From a virus (Duplodnaviria; Heunggongvirae; Uroviricota; Caudoviricetes): DNA of 47,784 bases. Below the pieces are notes generated by a model that was not told the DNA's origin, searched no databases, and was given only the letters and a program-made list of their open reading frames with translations. The DNA is taken from the IMG/VR virus record IMGVR_UViG_2706794696_000014, one strand, 5' to 3'. Position numbers and translations under genes: made by a program. Each line of letters opens with the position of its first letter. Position 1 is the first letter of the stretch. Positions 1,984 through 44,089 of the stretch are shown piece by piece.

Positions 1984-2793
1984 TTATTCCTCTGAATTAT
2001 CGATTACACTGTATTCCCCGGTTAATACAGAGGAATCTGCAGGATCGATTGTCAGTGGTTCCTTTTCATCCATTGATACTGCACGCTGGATCTCAATTGA
2101 TACGGGCAGATATTTGAACAGGCGACGAATAGCCGTTTTCTTTGCCATTTCTTCCCAGTGAGTTACCCACGGCCCGTTATTACCAGCTTTACTCTGGCTG
2201 CGCACCAGCTCAATCTGTTTGCGCGTCATAACTTCAAACTGAGTACCTCCGTCTTTCAGTCTTGCGACAGCATAGACGTGGGTAACAGGGGCATCTTCGT
2301 TTTCTCCTGGGCGGTGTATTAACTTTTCATCAAGGCCAAATTCGAAATTAAACTCGTCACCTTCACGGACAACACGGGCTGACAGGCTGGCGATTTGACC
2401 TGAACGGCGAGCCAGATCAATCATGCCGCGATAGCCAATGATTAGCTGAACGTTTTTTTTACCGCTCTTTTCGTTTTTATTACCAAAAGGCAGTAAATAT
2501 GCATGACCGAGGGCGCTACCGGGCTCAAGTCCGAGCTGTGAACACTGTACGATTGCACTGACAAAACTCATAGTGTCACAGTTTCCTAACGCCGGAACTT
2601 TACGAATTTCTGTGGTGGCGATACGGATCATACGTTCAGCCGTCATATGGCGTGGAAGAGCTGCTGCCAGTTGCTCTTTCATTGATGGCTGGTTAATAAA
2701 ACTAATCACGTCGTTATTTTTAATTGCTGCTGGTGCACGGTTTCCCTGAGTTTTTTGCAGATCGGCTTTTGCGATTGGTGGTTGCTTAGTCAT
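1984..2793 (-). CDS. recT: RecT single-strand annealing protein, 269 aa
   Basis: ORF starting [16 protein letters not shown] with an AAGGA Shine-Dalgarno; RecT/Redbeta-family signature; start overlaps the recE stop by 8 nt. Confidence 0.9.
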
Positions 2794-5386
2794 TTGCATA
2801 TTCCTTAGCCCAGCGGGGCAGTGATAACGTCTTAATAGCTGGCCATTCATCGGTATTGAGGCAGTCAGCCAGGGTTCGCAGATTGCGGTGATATTCCAGC
2901 TGACCTGCCAGTTTTGCTTCTTCGCCCATCATGAAAATTTCAACCGGATAACGTCCGCATTCAATAGTTGTGCTGGCAACCAGAAAAACGAAAGTTGGCT
3001 GCACTCCAAACTGTGCTTCATAACCGTCACTGTAGAATGCATCCTGAACGTGATAGCGGTAGTCGTAATAAGCGGTTTTGAATCGTTGAATATCCGCCGT
3101 AGTTTTCACGTCCATGATCCAGTGAAATTCAGGGATAATTTTGTCCGGACGGCACCGACACAAAATTGCTGTTTCAGGATCTTCCCAGTAAATTGATGAT
3201 TCAGCGTGTCCGGCGCTTTCAACAAGCCATTGCCCCAGCGGCAAAGCCATAACGCTCTGATACATGAGTTCAATTTTCCGGCCTTCTTCGGCAGTGATAA
3301 CCGTTTTTCCTGTGCTTGCGCATTCCCTCAGAAACGCTTTCTCTTCTTCTTTTCCGGAGTTTGTCCGGCGGTTAAATTCAGGTGCTACGATAAAGCGGTT
3401 ACTGAATTCTTCCGGCTCAAGTACCCGGCAGTGGAAAGCGGTTCCTAAATCGAGCGTTTTTGTCTTTGTGGTGTCCACGGGGGCATTTTTACGCCACAAA
3501 TACAGTGCCGGAGTATCAGCAATGTCATCGAGCTGAGACTTACTGACACCGGGACCCGCGTGGTAATTCTCATTCGAAATTCCGTAATAAATACCTGGCT
3601 CTATGTCTTCTACGATTACGGGATCTGCGACTTCGCCAGTTTCATCACTGCAATCGCGATGCGGATCGCTGCCAGCATTCTCATTGTGCGGATGTTCAGC
3701 GCCTTCCATTTCCTCCGGATCATTTTCCTTAGCTTCAACCTGACTCTCTTCATCGAATGTTTCCTGGTATGTTGCGTCGCCCATCACCGCACCACAGTCA
3801 GGGCAGTTATCCCCGCCAGTCTGGCCGCAGGCATTGCAGGCTATTTCCGGTTCCTGTTGCACTACTGGCTCAGGTTGATTCATATCCGGGCTGGTTTTTT
3901 CCGTTTCTGGCTGGTTCTGGTACACACAATCGCGAGTCTGGATCCCCTTTACCCATTTCGGATCGTTCGGGTCGCTAATTCCGTCAACAAATTCACCACG
4001 TGATGCAGCAAGCAATTTATCGGCATCGACAGGATTTTTTGATGGAATGTTTTTCCGGGCTTCATGGAGTTCTGCCCGCAGTTCCTGATATTTCGCATCA
4101 ACAGAATTTACCTGTGACTGAGCATCCAGCGGCTGCGTGTCCTGATGATGTTCAGTTGCGTCCGGTTCCATTGTTTCAGCCTCTCCCTGTTCAACTGCCG
4201 TTGTTCCAGATGGTTGCGGTTTTTCTTCATCATCCTGTTTTCCTTCTTCTGTTACTCGCTGCGGCATCGGGGCAGAGGAGCGACCGCAGGCAATATCCAC
4301 GATTTCCGGATCAGGGTTGGCATGATCGGTTTCAGTCAGTACTTTGTTCAGATATTCAGTGACGTGCGCGGGGATGACCTCGATCCCAATTGGTGCTTCT
4401 TTTACGGACGCAACCACGATGGCGCGGGAATAATCCAGCCCGCCAGGCATGGTGATGAATTTGTCGCGGAAAACAGAAAAGGGCGGTTTATTTTCAGCGA
4501 TAATTTCCTCAATGCGTTTAGCGTGTGCCGGATGAAGGTTATAGATGTCCAGATCCATTGAACGGGCCAGTACGCCAGTGGCTACGTCCCGCGCCAGTGA
4601 CGTCAGATCGTGTACGAAACCTTCGCCGCGATCGGTGAGGTTTCCGCCGCCAGCATTAGCACCGGAAGCCGTGCGAGTGATGTGTGAAACACGATTACCC
4701 TTCATCCACTCTTTTGTCAGCAGTCCTCGATCGGTGTAGTCAGCGTTCAGGTATGCTTCGAAAAAAGCAGTTATCAGTCCCAGGTTTGAATTACCAGGAT
4801 TAGGGAAAACTTTGTCAGTGTCACGAACCAGTTTGTGGAGTTCGCGAATTTCCAGCGGGTCGAGCAGGCTGGTTTTGTGGGAAACAGCCAGGGCAGTAAC
4901 AGCCGGTAGTTCTTCAGCCCGAGCAATGTGTAATGCCTGGAGTCCGTCGCGTGAAACGTGCGTTACCGGTTTTTCGCTGCCGTGTTGAGCAAGCCAACGA
5001 ATGGGCAGTTCCTGGCCAGAAATTGGGAGTAGCATATTCTCCTCAATCTCAGGCATGTCTTCGCCGTTGACGTTGGTATTGCCTTGATAGTGAGCGTTGT
5101 CTGGTGCTGCTCCCGGTTTTAGTTCCCATGTCATGGAGTCTTTGCTGAGTTGATAGCGTTCACTCCAGGTAAAATCGATCTCACCTTCAGCGGGCAGGTC
5201 ATTAACGACAGGAAAATTCGTGGCAACAGCTTTAAAATAGCTGCTCAGTTTTTTACCTGACTTAACGATCAGGTAGTCCAGAGTGGCACAGGTCGATTCA
5301 AAATCGTTGCTTGCCCACAGGACGACGTCAGGTTCACCGGATGATTTTTTCGCTTTCCGTAACAGGAAGAGTGGTTTTGTGCTCAT
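2786..5386 (-). CDS. recE: Exodeoxyribonuclease VIII (RecE), 866 aa
   Basis: 866-aa ORF directly upstream of recT on the same strand; acidic low-complexity middle and C-terminal nuclease region as in RecE. Confidence 0.9.
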
Positions 5387-20581: not shown

Positions 20582-20718
20582 AATCTTAACTACAATATGA
20601 TTCATTTTGATGATTGTTTCATAAGGAACAGTGAAGTAAGATCTAAGAGGAGTTAAATTTTATACAGTATAATCATAATATTGCAGCAAGGTGGTTATAA
20701 TTGAAAGAATATTTAGAT

Positions 20719-22176
20719 ATGAATACATCTCATGTAAGAGTTGTTACTCATATGTGTGGGTTCCTGGTTTGGCTCTATAGTCTTTCAATGTTGCCACCAA
20801 TGGTTGTAGCATTGTTTTATAAAGAAAAAAGCCTGTTCGTTTTCTTTATAACTTTCGTTATATTTTTTTGCATTGGTGGCGGAGCGTGGTATACAACTAA
20901 GAAATCTGGCATTCAATTACGTACCCGTGATGGGTTTATTATAATTGTAATGTTTTGGATTTTGTTTTCTGTTATTAGTGCATTCCCTTTATGGATTGAC
21001 TCAGAACTTAATTTAACGTTCATTGATGCTCTGTTTGAAGGGGTTTCTGGAATAACAACAACAGGAGCAACTGTAATTGATGATGTTAGTTCATTACCTC
21101 GGGCATATTTGTACTATCGGTCACAGTTAAATTTTATAGGTGGTTTAGGAGTTATTGTTCTGGCGGTTGCAGTATTGCCATTATTGGGTATTGGTGGTGC
21201 AAAGCTTTATCAGTCAGAAATGCCGGGGCCATTTAAGGATGACAAACTCACTCCCCGCCTGGCCGATACGTCACGGACACTGTGGATAACTTATTCTTTA
21301 TTAGGTATTGCTTGTATTGTCTGTTATAGACTTGCAGGAATGCCTTTGTTTGATGCTATTTGTCACGGGATTTCCACAGTTTCGCTTGGTGGTTTCTCAA
21401 CTCATAGCGAGAGTATCGGATATTTTAATAACTATTTGGTTGAGCTGGTGGCTGGTTCTTTTTCCCTGCTATCGGCTTTCAACTTCACTCTTTGGTATAT
21501 TGTTATTAGCAGAAAAACGATAAAACCTTTAATCAGAGATATTGAACTTCGTTTCTTTCTGTTAATAGCCTTAGGGGTGATCATTGTTACCTCTTTCCAG
21601 GTCTGGCATATAGGTATGTATGACTTGCATGGAAGTTTTATTCATTCGTTTTTTCTTGCCAGCTCCATGCTCACTGATAATGGTTTAGCTACGCAGGATT
21701 ATGCAAACTGGCCCACGCACACGATAGTGTTTTTGCTGTTGTCAAGTTTCTTTGGGGGATGTATAGGTTCAACCTGTGGTGGAATTAAGTCACTTCGATT
21801 TCTTATACTTTTCAAACAAAGCAAACACGAGATAAATCAGCTTTCTCATCCCAGAGCGTTGTTGAGTGTAAATGTAGGAGGGAAGATAGTTACAGATCGT
21901 GTAATGAGGTCTGTATGGAGTTTCTTTTTTCTTTATACTCTCTTCACGGTGTTTTTTATACTGGTGTTAAATGGTATGGGATATGATTTTCTTACATCAT
22001 TTGCAACAGTGGCTGCATGTATTAATAATATGGGATTAGGTTTTGGGGCTACTGCATCGTCATTCGGAGTGCTTAATGACATTGCAAAATATTTAATGTG
22101 CATAGCTATGATTCTTGGTCGCCTTGAAATTTATCCTGTTATTATATTGTTTTCAGGTTTTTTTTGGCGCTCCTAA
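20719..22176 (+). CDS. trkG: Trk-system potassium uptake protein TrkG (TrkH/TrkG family), 485 aa
   Basis: Polytopic membrane protein starting MNTSHVRVVTHMCGFLVWLYSLSMLPPMVVALFYKEK; AT-rich codon usage; sits right after the lysis cassette as in Rac. Confidence 0.85.
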   Translation: MNTSHVRVVTHMCGFLVWLYSLSMLPPMVVALFYKEKSLFVFFITFVIFFCIGGGAWYTTKKSGIQLRTRDGFIIIVMFWILFSVISAFPLWIDSELNLTFIDALFEGVSGITTTGATVIDDVSSLPRAYLYYRSQLNFIGGLGVIVLAVAVLPLLGIGGAKLYQSEMPGPFKDDKLTPRLADTSRTLWITYSLLGIACIVCYRLAGMPLFDAICHGISTVSLGGFSTHSESIGYFNNYLVELVAGSFSLLSAFNFTLWYIVISRKTIKPLIRDIELRFFLLIALGVIIVTSFQVWHIGMYDLHGSFIHSFFLASSMLTDNGLATQDYANWPTHTIVFLLLSSFFGGCIGSTCGGIKSLRFLILFKQSKHEINQLSHPRALLSVNVGGKIVTDRVMRSVWSFFFLYTLFTVFFILVLNGMGYDFLTSFATVAACINNMGLGFGATASSFGVLNDIAKYLMCIAMILGRLEIYPVIILFSGFFWRS

Positions 22177-32207: not shown

Positions 32208-32588
32208 ATGGCAAAGGCATGGGATATAGAACCGTCAATATTTGCCGGGATGATTGAGGAAGATGTAGGGCTGAAGATTCGCTACATCGCTATGCAGATT
32301 CTTACTGCTATTGATATTGCTGCTCCGGTTGATACCGGACGTTTCAGAAATAACAACCTGGTGTCGTTACAGCATCCCGATTTTGGTATATCTGATAACG
32401 TGGATCCGAACGGTACGATTGCTGTTCAGCGTGGGATCGGGGTTATTTCGAAAGCTGCAAATTACGGGGTTATTTATATCCAGAATAACCTTCCTTATGC
32501 AGAGGCTCTTGAAAACGGTCATTCACAACAAGCGCCAACTGGCGTGTATGCCAACGCTTTTCATGGTGTTTTACAGGCTTACAAATGA
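32208..32588 (+). CDS. Tail completion protein (HK97 gp10-like, putative), 126 aa
   Basis: Position in the head-tail joining module, immediately after the previous gene. Confidence 0.6.
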   Translation: MAKAWDIEPSIFAGMIEEDVGLKIRYIAMQILTAIDIAAPVDTGRFRNNNLVSLQHPDFGISDNVDPNGTIAVQRGIGVISKAANYGVIYIQNNLPYAEALENGHSQQAPTGVYANAFHGVLQAYK

Positions 32589-32977
32589 AGTTTACTGAAA
32601 TCAGAAATACGGTTATTTCCAGAATGACGGCACAGACGATTATTGATGGAAAAGACGTATTGTATCCGAACGGGCCAACGTTCGATCCTTCCGGTAAGTT
32701 AATCTGGGCGCGGTTAAGTAATATTCCCGGGCAGGCTGGAGTTAATGAAATTGGCGCGGGGCCGGTTGTTTATCGCACGGGGATAATCATTATTCAGTTA
32801 TTTGTCCCCGCAGGTTCTGGTTCAAAACTCATTACTGAGACAGCCGATAAATTGCGGGAACTGTTTGAGTTTCAGGATGACGATCGTCTCAGTTACCAGG
32901 CTGTTTCCTCAATAGCCGTTGGCGAAAAGAATGGCTGGTTCCAGCTTAATCTTCAAATTCCATATCGCGCGCTCTAG
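32585..32977 (+). CDS. Tail terminator protein (putative), 130 aa
   Basis: Start overlaps the previous stop (ATGA); immediately upstream of the major tail protein gene. Confidence 0.6.
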   Translation: MKFTEIRNTVISRMTAQTIIDGKDVLYPNGPTFDPSGKLIWARLSNIPGQAGVNEIGAGPVVYRTGIIIIQLFVPAGSGSKLITETADKLRELFEFQDDDRLSYQAVSSIAVGEKNGWFQLNLQIPYRAL

Positions 32978-33003: not shown

Positions 33004-33966
33004 GTGAGTTCAGGTGCAAAGGTTATCTCGGCATTTATCCGGGAGACGGTTGCAGGCACTACGCCAGCAAGTGGTGACTGGAGTTTATTAAAACGCACAA
33101 GCTGGGGAGTAAAACCCACCCAGAATAAAGGCGAAAATAATGAGATTGGTGGCTCCCGGATGGCTCAGGGGGCGACGCCTGGCACTGTGGATGTCGGCGG
33201 TGATGTTGGTACCAAATTTCGCTGGGGTCAACATGATGATTTTCTTGCATCCTGTTTCGGCGCGGAATGGTCAGGCGATTCTCTGACAATGGGGAATGAG
33301 CGAATAACATTTTCTCTGGCGACCTATGCGTCCGATGTCGGAATTGCCTCTGTCGTCAGAGGAGCGCAGGTTGGCTCATGGAAAATGCAGATCCCTAACG
33401 ACGGCGATATTACAGCGACCGTAACCTTTGCCGGACTGGACTGGGAATCAAAGGCCGATGATACGAATTTTATCAAAGGCGAACCTGTGGATAGTGCAGG
33501 AAAGCTACGTTATTCGTTTAAGGAGGTTTCAGCAGTAAGCCTGAATGGTGTTGCCGGAGGTAACGGTTTTTGTATCGACAGTTTTGATATTCAGTTCGAT
33601 AACAAACTCCAGACACAGCGTTGTATCGGGACTGGCTCGCCTTATGCAGGAGCAAATATTCCGACTACTTTTACACCGTCCGGTACGGTGACGCTTTCAT
33701 GGTCTAAAGCCGCGTGGGAAATCTGGAGTAAAACACTGACTGGAGAAACAGTTCCGTTCAGCTTCACGCTTTCGAATGGAGAGGGGGCATACACTTTCAG
33801 TTTCCCGAAGGTTCAGGTGTCAGGTGAATGGCCTGATGGGGGTAATAGCGACATTATCCAGGTTCAATTGAGCATTACCGCAGCAGATGAAGCACCTACG
33901 ATAACCAGAAAAAAAAATTCCCCGGCTGCCGTGATCGCAAAAGCCAGTGCTGAGGCGATTAGTTGA
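33004..33966 (+). CDS. Major tail (tube) protein, 320 aa
   Basis: GTG start after AGGAGG; located just before the G/GT chaperone pair and the tape measure. Confidence 0.75.
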   Translation: MSSGAKVISAFIRETVAGTTPASGDWSLLKRTSWGVKPTQNKGENNEIGGSRMAQGATPGTVDVGGDVGTKFRWGQHDDFLASCFGAEWSGDSLTMGNERITFSLATYASDVGIASVVRGAQVGSWKMQIPNDGDITATVTFAGLDWESKADDTNFIKGEPVDSAGKLRYSFKEVSAVSLNGVAGGNGFCIDSFDIQFDNKLQTQRCIGTGSPYAGANIPTTFTPSGTVTLSWSKAAWEIWSKTLTGETVPFSFTLSNGEGAYTFSFPKVQVSGEWPDGGNSDIIQVQLSITAADEAPTITRKKNSPAAVIAKASAEAIS

Positions 33967-34014
33967 TTTTCCGTTATTCCTCCTGTGGTACTGCCCTACA
34001 GGGGGACGCATTGA

Positions 34015-34476
34015 ATGAGGTTATGGATGTTTATTCTTAATCAGAAAATTATCATTGGTGGAGAACGCTGGTTTACGCCAATGAAGGACTTAAAACCTGT
34101 AGACGGGTTAAAACTGTTGGTGGCAAGCAGCGATAACGATCAGTATCGCTCCCGTAATGCATTAATCCGTCGCCACATTGAGAAAATGGATGCCAGTTTG
34201 CACGTCGGAACGAAGGAGTTTGATATTTCAAAGGTTTCCGAGGTGGATTCTGTTGATGATTTACTCATTGATAATGCCGCTCGTTATCTGCTGAAAGACT
34301 GGAAAGGGGTTGGTGAACTGGTTAATGGTGTTGAGGTTGCACTGGAATATACGGCAGAACGAGGGATCGCGCTGCTTAAGCAGAATCCAGAGTTGTACTG
34401 GCAGATCCTTGCAGAAGCAGCCAGCATCGCCCAGGGTAAAGAGCAGCAGAAGCAGGATACGATAAAAAAGCCATAG
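34015..34476 (+). CDS. Tail assembly chaperone (lambda G-like), 153 aa
   Basis: ORF before the tape measure gene; its 3' end contains a -1 slippery heptamer leading into an overlapping downstream frame. Confidence 0.75.
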   Translation: MRLWMFILNQKIIIGGERWFTPMKDLKPVDGLKLLVASSDNDQYRSRNALIRRHIEKMDASLHVGTKEFDISKVSEVDSVDDLLIDNAARYLLKDWKGVGELVNGVEVALEYTAERGIALLKQNPELYWQILAEAASIAQGKEQQKQDTIKKP

Positions 34477-34784
34477 CTGCCCAGCGGTGGTTATCGGAGT
34501 TCGGGGGAGAAAGGGGGGAAAAGGCAAGATGGAAGCGAGAAAAACTCAGGTTGCCACCGATACCGGAACCAGAAATAGACCCGGTGCTTAAGGAGTTGTT
34601 GTACGCCTATTCGGTAATATCCCGTGCCCGACGTTATGCTGGAATGGCTGGGGTGCCTTTGCCTTTATCTCTGACAGAGATAAATGAATATTTAGCCACT
34701 CATCCGGTATTGATTGAGCGCGATGAATTTGAAGCAGTGATCTTTGCACTGGATGACCAGTATTTTCAGGAGCAGTGTGTGTAG
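34015..34784 (+). CDS. Tail assembly chaperone G-T fusion product made by programmed -1 frameshift (T segment about 34470..34784)
   Basis: The -1 frame is open from 34440 to 34784; slippery site A_AAA_AAG at 34464-34470 lies inside the 37-nt overlap before the G stop (TAG 34474-34476). Confidence 0.65.
34464..34470 (+). other. Programmed -1 ribosomal frameshift slippery heptamer A_AAA_AAG
   Basis: Zero-frame codons ACG ATA AAA AAG CCA TAG; the heptamer is positioned exactly in the G / -1 frame overlap. Confidence 0.65.
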
Positions 34785-34902
34785 TTGTTAATTACGTACA
34801 CTCTGTTACAGAGATGTGATGGTGTCTTTAATTAAATCGATGATGCTCCTGGAGAAAAGCATTGCGTGGCCTCGTAATCGCTATATCTACTATTATGTCG
34901 CC

Positions 34903-34930
34903 TGAAACCCACTTCGCGGTGGGTTTTTTG
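34903..34930 (+). terminator. Terminator-like hairpin just upstream of the tape measure gene (possible attenuator)
   Basis: AAACCCAC-ttcgcg-GTGGGTTT followed by TTTT; lies 20 nt before the tape measure Shine-Dalgarno. Confidence 0.45.
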
Positions 34931-34949
34931 TTGTCAGGAGTTTTAATAA

Positions 34950-37900
34950 ATGGCAGAGCAAACCTCGCGTCTCGCAATAATTATTGATAGCACTGGAGCG
35001 AAAAATAATGCTGACAATCTGACCTCCTCATTAGTCAAAATGACGCAGGCTGGGGAAACTGCTGCAAATAGCGCAGGGAAAGTGACTAAGGCAACAGAAG
35101 ATGAGAAGAACGCGCTCGCAAAATTAAAAGCAGCTATTGATCCAGTTGGTGCCGCAATTGATACTGTCGGTCGACGCTATTCTGAATTAAAGAAATTTTT
35201 CGATAAAGGGCTTATTGATAAAGAAGAATATGAATTTCTTGTCCGTAAACTTAATGAAACCACAGAGGAATTGAGCGGGGTTGCGCAAGCGCAGAGAGAA
35301 GCCGAGAAGGCCGGAAAACTTGCTGCCGCCCAGCAGGAAGCGCAGGCTCAGGCCTTTCAAAGAATGCTGGACAAGATCGACCCTCTGGCTGCGGCGCTAA
35401 GAAATCTTGAACAACAGCATGATGAACTTAATGCTGCGTTTGCATCCGGGAAAATAAATGGTTCTCAGTTTGAGAATTATAGCCGAAAAATACAGGAAAC
35501 ACGGCGAGAGCTTACCGGAGAGGCTCAGGCAGAGCGAGAAGCAGCAAAAGCGCATGATGAACAGGTTGTTGCTTTGCAACGTCTGATTGCTCAACTTGAT
35601 CCTGTCGGAACTGCTTTTAATCGTCTGGTAGAACAACAGAAACAGCTCAATGAAGCAAAAGCTAAGGGGATGCTTTCTCCTGAAATGTATGAGGAGCTTT
35701 CTGGAAAACTTCGTGCTATGCGGAGTGAGCTTGAGGTTACTCAATCACAATTAAGCAAAACCGGAATGTCGGCAAAACAAACGGCTTTTGCTATGCGCAT
35801 GTTGCCTGTACAAATGACGGATATTGTTGTTGGGTTGTCCACTGGTCAGTCGCCATTTATGGTGTTAATGCAGCAGGGCGGCCAGCTAAAAGATATGTTC
35901 GGTGGGATTGGCCCGGCGATCAAAGGTGTAGGTTCTTATGTGCTGGGATTAATTAATCCTTTTACCCTGGCCGCAGCAGCCGTTGGGGTCTTAGGACTGG
36001 CTTACTATAAAGGCTCTCAGGAGCAGGACGAATTTAATAAATCTCTTATTCTTACCGGAAATCAGTTGGGGACAACCAGCGGGCAATTGGGCGATATAGC
36101 TCAACGTGCCGGGAATGCGGCTGATTCGACAACTGGTGCTGCGGCGGCAGTATTAAATCAGCTTGTGCGTTCGGGAAAGGTAGCGAGCAGTTCGCTGGAG
36201 CAAGTGACGACAGCGATAGTAAAAACGAGCGAAGTAACAGGAATATCAACCGAACAACTGGTTAATGACTTCAATGAAATTGCAAAGGATCCTGTCAGTG
36301 CCATATCAAAACTTAATGATCAGTACCATTTTCTGACACTTGCGACTTATAACCAGATTAAGGCGCTACAGGATGAAGGGAACCAGCAGGAGGCCGCCCG
36401 CATTGCGACAGAAGAATACTCATCCTCAATGATCCAGCGCACCAACCAGATTAAAGAAAATCTTGGTTATCTTGAGACTGCATGGAAAGCTGTCGCAGAC
36501 TCCGCAAAATGGGCATGGGATTCCATGCTGGATATTGGCCGTGAGGCCTCCCTTGATCAAAAAATCTCAGATGTTCTCCGTCAAATTGATGAAATAGAAA
36601 AAAATACCCGACCCGGAGTTTTCGGGTTAGGTGGCATTGGAGATGGCGGAGCTCAAAATAAAAGGCTGGCACGATTAAAGCAGCAATTGGGCGTACTTCA
36701 AGCAGAAAAAATTGCTCAGGACGTACTAAATTCATCAATAAACGATTACAACAAGCGACAACAGGAAGGAATTGAACTCAGACAGAGAGCAGATGCCTTT
36801 TCAAAACAATATCAGACCCGGGAGCAGCAGAGAGCTAGTGAACTTGCAAAACTGGAAAAGCTAAAGAATCAGTATTCAAAGGAAGAATATAATAATCTTA
36901 TCGCTCAAATAAATGAGCGTTATAAAGATCCAAAGCAACCAAAGGCGAAAGGTTATTCTGATGATGCAGCCCAACGAATGATTGATCATCTGAATCAACA
37001 GAATGCGTTACTAAGTTCACAAGCTGAGTTGACCGTTAAATTAAGTTCCTCTGAACAGGAACTGGTTAAGTGGCGTCAGCGGATTGCCGACCTAGAGTCA
37101 CGACCATCATCGAAATTAACCCAGGATCAGAAATCGCTTCTCTTACACCGGGAAGAAATAACCACGTTGATGGAGAAAAATGTTGCGATTGAAAAAAATA
37201 ACAGGCTAATCAAGGAATCCGCCGAAATAACAGCATGGCGTGATTCATTGCAGGCTTCGATTGATAATCGTCAGCAGGGGTATGATATTCAGATTGCTGG
37301 TTATGGGGTTGGCGATAAAAATCAGCAACGCCAGCAGGAATTACTGCGGATTGAACATGGATATAACAATCAGCGTCTGCAACTTGAACGTGACTATGCA
37401 GATAAATCCCGTGGAATGTCAGATCATGTTTTTCAAGAGAAAATGCAGGCTCTGAATGATGCTCTGGAACGGGAAAAAGAAATTGTCAGACAGAAAAACG
37501 AGCAGCTCGATATTCAGGCAGGAGACTGGGTTAGTGGTGCCTCCCAGGGATTCAATAACTGGCTGGATGACACTAAGGATATCAGTGAGCAGATAAAATC
37601 AACCACGACTCAGATGTTTGATGGGATGACCGATGCGCTGGGTGATTTTGTCACGACAGGCAAGGCAAATTTTCGTTCTTTCGCTACTTCCGTGATTTCG
37701 GATCTTAGTCGAATAGCATTAAAGGCTTCAATTACTGGGATTTTCGACAGCATTAGTAACAGTTCTTCTGGGGGGATTTTAGGAACTATCGGGAGTGCTA
37801 TTAGTAAATTTATTCCGAATGCAAAGGGCGGTGTTTATGAGTCTCCGTCATTGAGCACGTATTCGAACGGTATTTATGATTCCCCGCAATTTTTTGCTTT

Positions 37901-38183
37901 TGCAAAAGGGGCTGGTGTTTTTGGTGAGGCTGGACCGGAAGCCATTATGCCATTAACACGAACTTCCGATGGTTCTCTTGGTGTCAGAGCTATTAATAGT
38001 AAAAGTGGTAATGGAGGCGGAGATATTACCTATGCCCCTGTATACCAAATCACTATTCAAAATGACGGCCAGAATGGAGAGATTGGCCCTCAGGCAATAA
38101 AAGCACTTATGGGGATGGTTGATCAGCGGGTGCAGGGCAATCTGTTAAATATGCGACGTGATGGGGGAATGTTAAGTGGCTAA
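34950..38183 (+). CDS. Tail tape measure protein, 1077 aa
   Basis: Very long, alpha-helical, Q/A/E/K-rich ORF downstream of G/GT; AGGAG Shine-Dalgarno. Confidence 0.9.
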
Positions 38184-39961: not shown

Positions 39962-40506
39962 AAACGGGGGCCGAAGCCATCCGGGCACTGGCCACACAGC
40001 TCCCGGCATTTCGTCAGAAACTGAGCGACGGCTGGTATCAGGTGCGCATTGCCGGGCGTGATGCAGGCGAAAATGAATTATCTGCCCGTCTTAATGAACC
40101 GCTGGCAAATGGTGCCGTGATCCACATCGTTCCGCGTCTGGCGGGTGCCAAAAGTGGCGGTGTGTTTCAGGCGGTGCTGGGTGCGGCGCTGATTGCGGTG
40201 GCATGGTGGAACCCTGTGGGCTGGCTGGGGGCCGCGGCTGTATCGGGTATGTATGCAGCAGGGGCCAGTATGATCCTGGGTGGTGTGGCGCAGATGCTGG
40301 CACCGAAAGCCAGGACGCCCACGGCAGCCAGTACAGATAACGGCAAACAGAACACGTATTTCTCGTCACTGGATAACATGGTTGCCCAGGGTAATGTTCT
40401 GCCTGTTCTGTACGGGGAAATGCGCGTGGGGTCACGTGTGGTTTCTCAGGAGATCAGCACGGCAGACGAAGGGGATGGTGGTCAGGTTGTGGTGATTGGT
40501 CGCTGA
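39859..40506 (+). CDS. Tail tip assembly protein I-like, 215 aa
   Basis: ORF MAATHTLPLASPGMARICLYGDLQRFGRRIDLRVKTGAEAIRAL ... GEMRVGSRVVSQEISTADEGDGGQVVVIGR, in the lambda I position. Confidence 0.85.
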   Translation: MAATHTLPLASPGMARICLYGDLQRFGRRIDLRVKTGAEAIRALATQLPAFRQKLSDGWYQVRIAGRDAGENELSARLNEPLANGAVIHIVPRLAGAKSGGVFQAVLGAALIAVAWWNPVGWLGAAAVSGMYAAGASMILGGVAQMLAPKARTPTAASTDNGKQNTYFSSLDNMVAQGNVLPVLYGEMRVGSRVVSQEISTADEGDGGQVVVIGR

Positions 40507-43500
40507 TGCAAAATGTTTTATGNNNNNNNNNNNNNNNNNNNNNNNNNNNNNNNNNNNNNNNNNNNNNNNNNNNNNNNNNNNNNNNNNNNNNNNNNNNNNN
40601 NNNNNNNNNNNNNNNNNNNNNNNNNNNNNNNNNNNNNNNNNNNNNNNNNNNNNNNNNNNNNNNNNNNNNNNNNNNNNNNNNNNNNNNNNNNNNNNNNNNN
40701 NNNNNNNNNNNNNNNNNNNNNNNNNNNNNNNNNNNNNNNNNNNNNNNNNNNNNNNNNNNNNNNNNNNNNNNNNNNNNNNNNNNNNNNNNNNNNNNNNNNN
40801 NNNNNNNNNNTGAGCAGGAGCAGTCACCGCCGGAGGGGTTTGAATCCTCCGGCTCCGAGACGGTGCTGGGTACGGAAGTGAAATATGACACGCCGATCAC
40901 CCGGACCATCACGTCGGCAAACATCGACCGTCTGCGCTTTACCTTCGGTGTACAGGCACTGGTGGAAACCACCTCAAAGGGAGACAGGAATCCGTCGGAA
41001 GTCCGCCTGCTGGTTCAGATACAGCGTAACGGTGGCTGGGTGACGGAAAAAGACATCACCATTAAGGGCAAAACCACCTCGCAGTATCTGGTCTCGGTGG
41101 TGGTGGATAACCTGCCTCCGCGCCCGTTCAGTATCCGGATGCGCAGGATGACACCGGACAGCACCACAGACCAGCTGCAGAACAAAACGCTCTGGTCGTC
41201 ATACACCGAAATCATCGATGTGAAACAGTGCTACCCGAACACTGCACTGGTCGGCGTACAGGTGGACTCGGAGCAGTTCGGCAGCCAGCAGGTGAGTCGT
41301 AATTATCATCTTCGCGGGCGCATTCTGCAGGTGCCGTCGAACTATAACCCGCAGACGCGACAATACAGCGGTATCTGGGACGGAACGTTAAAACCAGCAT
41401 ACAGCAACAACATGGCCTGGTGTCTGTGGGATATGCTGACCCACCCGCGCTACGGCATGGGGAAACGTCTTGGTGCGGCGGATGTGGACAAATGGGCGCT
41501 GTATGTCATCGGCCAGTACTGCGACCAGTCAGTGCCGGACGGCTTTGGCGGCACGGAGCCGCGCATCACCTGTAATGCGTACCTGACCACACAGCGCAAG
41601 GCGTGGGATGTGCTCAGTGATTTCTGCTCGGCGATGCGCTGTATGCCGGTATGGAACGGGCAGACGCTGACGTTCGTGCAGGACCGACCGTCGGATAAGG
41701 TGTGGACCTATAACCGCAGTAATGTGGTGATGCCGGATGATGGCGCGCCGTTCCGCTACAGCTTCAGCGCCCTGAAAGACCGCCATAATGCCGTTGAGGT
41801 GAACTGGATTGACCCGGATAACGGCTGGGAGACGGCGACAGAGCTTGTGGAGGATACGCAGGCCATTGCCCGTTACGGTCGTAACGTCACGAAGATGGAT
41901 GCTTTTGGCTGTACCAGCCGGGGGCAGGCACACCGCGCCGGGCTGTGGCTGATTAAAACAGAACTGCTGGAAACGCAGACCGTGGACTTCAGCGTGGGCG
42001 CAGAAGGGCTTCGCCATGTGCCGGGCGATGTCATTGAAATCTGTGATGATGACTATGCGGGTATCAGCATCGGCGGGCGCGTGCTGGCGGTAAACAGCCA
42101 GACCCGGACGCTGACGCTCGACCGTGAAATCACGCTGCCATCNNNNNNNNNNNNNNNNNNNNNNNNNNNNNNNNNNNNNNNNNNNNNNNNNNNNNNNNNN
42201 NNNNNNNNNNNNNNNNNNNNNNNNNNNNNNNNNNNNNNNNNNNNNNNNNNNNNNNNNNNNNNNNNNNNNNNNNNNNNNNNNNNNNNNNNNNNNNNNNNNN
42301 NNNNNNNNNNNNNNNNNNNNNNNNNNNNNNNNNNNNNNNNNNNNNNNNNNNNNNNNNNNNNNNNNNNNNNNNNNNNNNNNNNNNNNNNNNNNNNNNNNNN
42401 NNNNNNNNNNNNNNNNNNNNNNNNNNNNNNNNNNNNNNNNNNNNNNNNNNNNNNNNNNNNNNNGCCATCGTGGATAACGGGGCGCACTTTGACGGCGACC
42501 AGAGCGGCACGGTGAATGGTGTCACGCCGCCAGCGGTGCAGCACCTGACTGCCGAAGTCACCGCAGACAGCGGGGAATATCAGGTGCTGGCGCGCTGGGA
42601 CACGCCGAAGGTGGTGAAGGGGGTGAGCTTTATGCTTCGCCTGACCGTGGCAGCGGATGACGGCAGTGAGCGGCTGGTCAGCACGGCCCGGACGACGGAA
42701 ACCACATACCGCTTCACGCAACTGGCGCTGGGACGGTACACGCTGACAGTCCGGGCGGTAAATGCCTGGGGACAGCAGGGCGATCCGGCGTCGGTATCGT
42801 TCAGGATTGCCGCACCGGTAGCACCGTCGCGGATTGAGCTGACGCCGGGCTATTTTCAGATAACTGCCACGCCGCATCTTGCGGTTTATGATCCGACGGT
42901 ACAGTTTGAGTTCTGGTTCTCGGAAACGCGGATTACCGATATCAGGCAGGTTGAAACCACAGCCCGCTACCTTGGCGCGGGGCTGTACTGGATAGCCGCC
43001 AGTATCAATATCAAACCGGGCCATGATTATTACTTTTATATCCGCAGTGTGAACACCGTTGGCAAATCGGCATTCGTGGAGGCCGTCGGTCGGGCGAGCG
43101 ATGATGCGGAAGGTTACCTGGATTTTTTCAAAGGCAAGATAACCGAATCCCATCTCGGTAAAGAGCTGCTGGAAAAAGTTGATCTGACGGAGGATAACGC
43201 CAGCAGACTGGATGAGTTTTCGAAAGAGTGGAAGGACGCTAACGATAAATGGAATGCGATGTGGGGCGTCAAAATTGAGCAGACCAAAGACGGCAAACAT
43301 TATGTCGCGGGTATTGGCCTCAGCATGGAGGACACGGAGGAAGGCAAGCTGAGCCAGTTTCTGGTTGCCGCCAATCGTATCGCGTTTATTGACCCGGCAA
43401 ACGGGAATGAAACGCCGATGTTTGTGGCGCAGGGCAACCAGATATTCATGAACGACGTGTTCCTGAAGCGCCTGACAGCCCCCGCCATTACCAGCGGTGG

Positions 43501-44089
43501 CAGTCCTCCGGTATTTTCCCTGACATCAGACGGAAAGCTGACCGCTAAAAATGCGGATATCAGTGGTAGTGTGAATGCGAACTCAGGAACGCTCAACAAT
43601 GTCACGATTAACCAGAACTGTACGATTAAGGGCATGCTGGAGGCGACCCAGGTCAGAGGGGATTTCGTTAAAGCTGTATCAAAAGCCTTCCCGAAAAAAG
43701 TCGGTACGTGGGGTAACACGGAAACACCAGACGGTACGGTTACAGTCACCATCAGCGATGATCATAACTTTGACCGCCAGATTATTATTCCGCCCATTAT
43801 TTTTAACGGTATAGCGTATGACGATCCGGGGAGCGGAAATAACCCAGGAGGCACGCGATACACGGGTTATGGTTTTGAAGTTCGCAAAAACGGCGTATTA
43901 ATCGCATCCAGAGAAACTAAAGGGGCCATTCCCGGTAGTTACAGTGCAGTTATTGATATGCCTAGTGGTGGTGGTAGCGTCACTCTGGAGTTTAAGATTT
44001 TCCAGAAAGGCAATCAGGGGGCAGGCAATATCACCGACTGTACGGTGATTGTGACCAAAAAAGCGGCTTCCGGCATCAGTATTCGTTGA
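40506..44089 (+). CDS. Central tail fiber / host specificity protein J-like, interrupted by two assembly gaps; true start lies inside the first gap
   Basis: Resolved segments ([31 protein letters not shown] ..., [28 protein letters not shown] ...) read as one lambda J-like protein; the frame differs across the second N-run, so gap lengths are estimates. Confidence 0.8.
40523..40810. other. Assembly gap (288 N) inside the 5' end of J
   Basis: Run of n in the sequence. Confidence 0.99.
42143..42463. other. Assembly gap (321 N) inside J
   Basis: Run of n; the J reading frame is not preserved across it, so the length is a placeholder. Confidence 0.99.

Follow-up and report, generated by a model that had tools for sequence, protein, structure and literature searches.

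Organization of the Tail Gene Region

The window, i.e., the entire stretch of 47,784 nucleotides analyzed here, is an intact Rac-like prophage of Escherichia coli. Its tail genes are arranged in the order tail terminator, tail tube, G, T, and tape measure, followed by homologues of the lambda-like genes M, L, K, I, and J, according to Pfam matches and to the PGAP annotation of an identical prophage. The tail terminator gene lies at 32585–32977 (Pfam). The gene coding for the tail tube (major tail) protein (33004–33966, plus strand), which matches PF18906 (Phage_tube_2; E = 9e-32) and is labeled "phage tail tube protein" by PGAP in the identical prophage, directly precedes the gene of a G-like tail assembly chaperone (34027–34476, plus strand). 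The latter is known as "YdaY" in E. coli annotation and its zero-frame product is 149 aa long. A T-like extension in the -1 frame comes next (34470–34784, plus strand; 104 codons and a TAG), and beyond it lies the gene of a 1077-aa tape measure protein (34950–38183, plus strand), recognized by the Pfam families TMP_2 (PF06791; E = 4e-81) and Tape_meas_lam_C (PF09718; E = 4e-26). Given these Pfam-identified neighbors and the lambda-like minor tail genes annotated downstream by PGAP, the pair of ORFs occupies the canonical G/T position, and by analogy the tape measure protein would be the expected client of both G and GT.

Salmonella phage SPF_0923 shares the 1.1-kb region surrounding the G/T pair at 100% identity and nine vB_EcoS phages share it at 97.9%; among 5426 complete E. 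coli genomes, 1074 contain this region. The Rac remnant of E. coli K-12 retains positions 34125–34960 of the window at 100% identity, a stretch containing a 5'-truncated ydaY, the slip site described below, the -1 ORF in full, and the beginning of ynaA, a tape measure remnant.

Elsewhere in the window, positions 1–29000 read as the remainder of a complete Rac-like prophage. ORFs of 411 aa (1–1236), 288 aa (1984–2850), and 866 aa (2786–5386) are found on the minus strand, and a 491-aa ORF lies at 20701–22176; by analogy with K-12 Rac, the 411-, 866-/288-, and 491-aa ORFs might encode the integrase, RecE/RecT, and TrkG. The window yielded no tRNA genes. Downstream of the tape measure gene, the tail-tip gene J appears as two overlapping plus-strand ORFs in different frames (40506–42515, 669 aa; 42470–44089, 539 aa). 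Among complete E. coli genomes, no contiguous match to 42200–42800 was found and the best hits begin at about position 42464 of the window, pointing to a mosaic junction in J, or else to a frameshift, near 42464–42515.

Overlapping Reading Frames and Proposed Slip Site

The upstream ORF, preceded by a stop at 34012, extends from 34015 to 34476. The ATG at 34027, with a GAGG 6 nt 5' of it, is likely the better start of G, the ATG at 34015 being an alternative. Translation of G ends at a TAG (34474–34476) that had been predicted and that a scripted frame table places at the same position. According to this table, the -1 frame is interrupted by a TAA at 34437–34439, is open from 34440 onward, and closes at a TAG (34782–34784); both the limits of the open frame (34440 through 34784) and the 37-nt overlap put forward in the original prediction are correct.

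The overlap contains the slippery heptamer A_AAA_AAG (34464–34470, plus strand), where tRNAs are proposed to slip in tandem into the -1 frame. Its phase was read directly from the sequence of positions 33900–35000, in which the zero-frame codons are ACG, ATA (34462–34464), AAA (34465–34467), AAG (34468–34470), CCA, and TAG, the stop thus standing two codons past the heptamer. The location of the heptamer and its zero-frame reading as AAA AAG had been called accurately to the base, and it is the sole in-phase heptamer of the X_XXY_YYZ type within the overlap. A conceptual -1 slip at this site joins residues 1–148 of G to 104 residues encoded in the -1 frame and so predicts a GT fusion of 252 aa, whose expected junction peptide is ...QDTIKKAIAAQR...

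By itself, the heptamer carries no significance, as the sequence AAAAAAG is common in the window, where both strands together hold 25 copies versus 14 ± 3.6 expected from shuffled sequences. Moreover, a mechanical scan for open frames no shorter than 100 codons that have an in-phase heptamer and can be extended by 60 or more codons in the -1 frame returned five others on the plus strand and one on the minus strand; we take these to be alternative frames within real genes and not genes themselves. The case for frameshifting therefore rests on genomic context and on comparison with relatives: the G/T arrangement is more than chance because the tube and tape measure genes flank it and because it is conserved in related loci.

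Identity of the G and T Proteins

G matches PHROG 313, "tail assembly chaperone" (E = 5e-46, 158 bits). The alignment of the 252-aa fusion is colinear with positions 20–246 of this family (227 of 258) and scores 174 bits versus 158 for G alone, from which it follows that PHROG 313 already includes long, fused members. The -1 frame part matches PHROG 1189, a family annotated as of unknown function (E = 1e-36). The predicted fold of G resembles those of phage tail assembly or tape measure chaperones in BFVD (E = 6e-5 to 1e-3, probability 1.0), and of 48,164 PDB chains, the one that matches it best belongs to the HK97 tail assembly chaperone (PDB 2ob9). Family membership and predicted fold thus support G as a tail assembly chaperone.

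Other resources were less informative. The local copy of Pfam gave no match for G, homologues of which have a precomputed hit to PF27119.1, and T reached 20.7 bits against PF23812 (Phage_TAC_18), under the cut-off of 27. No NCBIfam family matched G or T, and no sequence similarity of either to solved structures was found.

Conservation of the Slip Site

The comparison covered 95 loci encoding relatives of G (15 genomic and 80 from IMG/VR), to which phages of Klebsiella, Erwinia, Pseudomonas, and Acinetobacter were added. The genera represented are Escherichia, Shigella, Citrobacter, Raoultella, Siccibacter, Serratia, Pantoea, Dryocola, Scandinavium, and Pectobacterium. Across the 95 loci and two Klebsiella phages, the slip site falls at the same ungapped aligned position. 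Most loci carry A_AAA_AAG there (Escherichia, Shigella, Citrobacter, Siccibacter, Dryocola, Scandinavium, and the two Klebsiella phages), and G_GGA_AAG, the heptamer of lambda, is found in Raoultella, Serratia, and Pantoea. This swap alters a residue in both frames (VKKP to VGKP in one, RKKA to RGKA in the other) and preserves slipperiness. A residue-changing exchange between two shift-prone heptamers is what selection acting on slipperiness predicts.

The same exchange bears on the possibility that RNA polymerase, rather than the ribosome, slips on the run of six A, deleting one A or adding two in the mRNA. Transcriptional slippage on A/T runs is a known route of recoding in bacteria (PMC5009743), and a run of six A is indeed present at the site. 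Nevertheless, the relatives from Raoultella, Serratia, and Pantoea, as well as Acinetobacter phage TRS1, use G_GGA_AAG, in which the runs are just three bases long; this makes polymerase slippage unlikely and fits tandem tRNA slippage. In addition, six A are short for efficient transcriptional slippage. We consider this explanation very improbable and favor slippage of the ribosome.

Beyond the conserved site, the two frames behave differently. The zero-frame stop occurs 10, 28, 82, or 112 nt past the start of the heptamer depending on the lineage, and the tail of G beyond the slip site varies among relatives in both sequence and length. In the -1 frame, the peptide KKA[IL]EAQKWLxEFGGExGEKAKWxREKLxLPPIPEPEID... 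is conserved from the first codon past the heptamer. Nei-Gojobori counts over 14 diverged loci gave, for the first 26 codons of the -1 frame, a pN/pS of 0.21 versus 1.59 and 1.32 in the other two frames, and for the segment from +9 to +180 nt, 0.235 versus 1.48 and 1.45. Downstream of the heptamer, purifying selection is seen only in the -1 frame (pN/pS 0.21–0.28), in which the variable columns number 15, 13, and 24 of 26 at codon positions 1, 2, and 3, respectively, i.e., variation affects mainly third positions.

These 26 codons are located upstream of any candidate start of T in the window, which is relevant to the alternative that T is a small gene initiated independently, at a start codon of its own, the heptamer being incidental. 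Candidate starts are TTG codons at 34551, 34599, and 34659 and an ATG at 34644. Gene callers do annotate the region in this manner: in SPF_0923, a 61-aa CDS corresponds to positions 34599–34784 of the window, and in some genomes PGAP reports a 41-aa "hypothetical protein" at 34659–34784. An AAGGAG (34590–34595) also stands ahead of the TTG codons at 34596 and 34599, but merely 0–3 nt from them. Against these calls, the choice of start differs between annotation pipelines, many records annotate nothing there, and the 26–58 codons located 5' of the candidate starts are under purifying selection in the -1 frame (pN/pS 0.21–0.24). Furthermore, among the 14 loci, no ATG, GTG, or TTG in the -1 frame is conserved before an internal Met at +180 nt that is itself conserved, and two loci (L012 and L018) have none of these codons before that point. 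The original prediction had named the use of an independent start by the downstream ORF as the observation that would refute it; the relatives instead display the evolutionary signature of a translated -1 frame without a start of its own. An independent T appears scarcely credible.

A third alternative is decay or error: a gene of a defective prophage, continuous at one time, would have been split by a frameshift mutation or by a sequencing error in a homopolymer. In its favor, many prophages of the Rac type are defective, the K-12 ydaY is truncated at its 5' end, and a few in-frame fused variants exist in databases, such as the 240-aa P0001, which arose by deletion. Yet the two-frame layout is present at a coverage of at least 80% in 1041 of the 5426 complete E. 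coli genomes. It is shared by 80 IMG/VR contigs, by genomes from nine further genera, and by deposited genomes of phages of Klebsiella, Escherichia, and Salmonella, and both frames are under purifying selection. Decay or error is consequently the least probable of the explanations considered, with next to no chance of being right. Together, the conserved heptamer, the roaming zero-frame stop, selection in the -1 frame, and the lack of a conserved start effectively exclude an independent T, a recent frameshift mutation, and a sequencing error, and favor programmed frameshifting.

As a separate observation, a few E. coli database proteins are in-frame G-T fusions (P0001, 240 aa; P0002, 220 aa). 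We rejected them as representatives of an ancestral single ORF, since small deletions or indels near the slip region produced them; they are natural or assembly-derived variants encoding GT only.

Variation in More Distant Relatives

The wider family includes loci that depart from the two common heptamers. In Pectobacterium odoriferum (L014, about 2920–2926), the homologous site reads G_GGG_AAG. In Erwinia phage Gungnir39 (L102, 1981–1995), it reads GTC GCA AAG TAA, that is, C_GCA_AAG followed by a TAA. In Pseudomonas phages phiPSA1 and Aurca01, the frames overlap by 154 nt and no in-phase canonical XXXYYYZ heptamer was found in the overlap. These variants may reflect alternative slip mechanisms, other sites, or decayed copies, and they indicate that a strict heptamer is not universal in the wider family. 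The forms observed at the homologous slip position are therefore A_AAA_AAG, G_GGA_AAG, G_GGG_AAG, and C_GCA_AAG plus TAA. Should the Pectobacterium and Gungnir39 forms be functional, they would provide a natural series for defining the minimal slippery sequence of a G/GT site, an example being single-tRNA slippage on A_AAG helped by an adjacent stop.

A second variable feature is an intrinsic-terminator-like hairpin followed by a T-run (34904–34933, plus strand), located in the 165-nt non-coding gap between the stop of T and the start of the tape measure gene. It consists of GAAACCCAC-TTCG-CGGTGGGTTTT and the T-run, 20 nt 5' of the tape measure ATG, and may lie outside the recoding device. Five diverged relatives (L006, L087, L014, L016, and L018) have a different hairpin with a T-run directly after the T stop; the feature thus recurs by position and not by sequence. 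Such a hairpin could set the dosage or stability of the transcript covering the tube and chaperone genes relative to that of the tape measure and tip genes.

Finally, the K-12 Rac cassette, with its truncated ydaY and its T frame, could still yield a frameshifted fusion in the laboratory strain. Taken jointly, turnover of the slip signal at a fixed position, frameshifting of the K-12 Rac cassette, and control of dosage by the hairpin downstream of T make up a speculative proposition, the truth of which in all its parts we consider rather doubtful.

Search for Stimulatory Signals

Efficient -1 frameshifting in E. coli is exemplified by dnaX, where roughly 50% efficiency is attained through a Shine-Dalgarno (SD)-like element about 10 nt upstream and a strong downstream hairpin. 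In the window, folding of positions 34471–34560 as a single sequence gives a GU-rich hairpin beginning directly at the heptamer, but this 90-nt fold is no better than those of shuffled sequences (z = -0.24). RNAalifold found no conserved downstream structure in 14 relatives (-3.7 kcal/mol, one covarying pair), and a downstream stimulatory RNA was rejected on these two grounds. Upstream, an AGGA lies 6 nt 5' of the heptamer, within conserved Q-E/D-T codons of G, and is absent in 3 of the 14 relatives. Stimulation of a -1 shift by an SD-like motif involves a spacing of roughly 10–14 nt in dnaX, for which 6 nt is too close. A scan of 33900–35100 against Rfam returned a single, sub-threshold match, to the terminator end of sroH. 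Hence, neither an SD-like element at about 10–14 nt nor a stable downstream hairpin, the stimulators of the dnaX type, was found here, and from the lack of a conserved stimulator we infer a low efficiency, lambda-like rather than dnaX-like.

Comparison with Known Systems

The locus shares with lambda G/GT its position between the major tail and tape measure genes, a short chaperone ORF with a -1 extension of about 100–140 codons, a heptamer a few codons ahead of the zero-frame stop, and the lack of any evident stimulatory structure; some orthologues even carry the heptamer of lambda. It differs from lambda by its heptamer, A_AAA_AAG instead of G_GGA_AAG, and by the 165-nt gap with a terminator-like hairpin that separates T from the tape measure gene, whereas T overlaps H in lambda. 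Comparison with lambda, which the original prediction had proposed, upholds the same arrangement and probably the same mechanism, but does not extend to the proteins themselves, as neither G nor T has a detectable sequence relation to its lambda counterpart. BLASTP of G against lambda G gave an E-value of 61, i.e., no detectable similarity, and PF06223 (Phage_tail_T), which matches lambda T, does not match the T of four relatives (two Enterobacterales loci, TRS1, and phiPSA1). What is shared is thus an arrangement and, probably, a mechanism, not a protein family.

Acinetobacter phage vB_AbaS_TRS1 encodes a distant homologue of T (38.8% identity over residues 170–249), and its chaperone was deposited as a joined CDS (TRS1_18/19) with an in-phase G_GGA_AAG. 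The heptamer of TRS1 precedes the zero-frame stop by 85 nt, unlike the 10 nt seen here, its host belongs to a different phylogroup, and its G part had no tblastn match.

E. coli dnaX (tau/gamma) offers the other point of reference, with the same heptamer A_AAA_AAG and the same host translation apparatus. The two cases differ in their surroundings, since the present locus has its AGGA, which some relatives lack, only 6 nt ahead of the heptamer and shows no conserved hairpin, and in their outcome: the shift truncates the product in dnaX and extends it at the present locus.

Proposed Mechanism

Gene order, chaperone family and fold, an in-phase heptamer, selection in the -1 frame, and a conserved slip site together support recoding of the G/GT type, as originally predicted. 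On these sequence-based grounds, we regard it as highly probable that the locus directs a genuine programmed -1 frameshift yielding both G and GT.

A single tRNA-Lys decodes both AAA and AAG in E. coli, as is generally known (see also PMC5009743). Both A_AAA_AAG and G_GGA_AAG have been described as highly shift-prone in this species (PMC5009743). Under the proposed mechanism, most ribosomes would translate from the ATG at 34027 to the TAG at 34474 and produce the 149-aa G-like chaperone. In a minority of them, the tRNA-Lys on AAA in the P site and that on AAG in the A site would both re-pair one base back. For slipped ribosomes, GCC at 34470 would be the next codon, and translation in the -1 frame would then run to the TAG at 34782, thereby producing the 252-aa GT. 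By analogy with lambda, the G part common to both products would serve to bind the tape measure protein and the T part to recruit the tail tube protein, and the efficiency of slippage would fix the G:GT ratio, which in lambda is about 30:1 and is required for tail assembly (PMC5009743). The sequence anatomy, the gene context, the chaperone family and predicted fold, and the signature of a translated -1 frame are thus results of the analysis, and slippage itself, its tandem ribosomal nature, its low efficiency, and the roles of both products are deductions that we regard as probable.

Annotation and Biological Meaning

The arrangement is that of textbook G/GT recoding in long-tailed phages, and it is unannotated in the examined records of this phage group, namely SPF_0923, the nine vB_EcoS phages, Klebsiella phages, and PGAP annotations of E. 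coli genomes, none of which bears a frameshift annotation. In these records, G is called "YdaY" or "hypothetical protein," and T either appears as a "hypothetical protein" of 41–61 aa with differing TTG starts or is left uncalled. The "protein YdaY" of PGAP starts internally at position 34117 of the window (119 aa), as opposed to 34027 for the full-length gene (149 aa). As this start matches that of the 5'-truncated K-12 gene (L003, 2993–3352), the full-length gene is evidently mis-started in intact prophages. A survey of A_AAA_AAG sites in E. coli K-12 genes was reportedly published by Gurvich et al. in 2003 (EMBO J). In the literature searched, which did not extend to that article or to Xu et al. 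(2004), no paper linking ydaY or Rac to frameshifting was found, nor were any published data on the production of G and GT in this phage group.

The main value of the present finding lies in annotation: biologically, it is one more case of a well-established rule and opens no new question. Since roughly one in five complete E. coli genomes contains the cassette, a joined CDS would nonetheless fix a widespread error. Tail assembly chaperones are a class of proteins sensed by the bacterial Avs17 receptors (PMC13581612), and a correct joined CDS would supply the true long isoform of this class.
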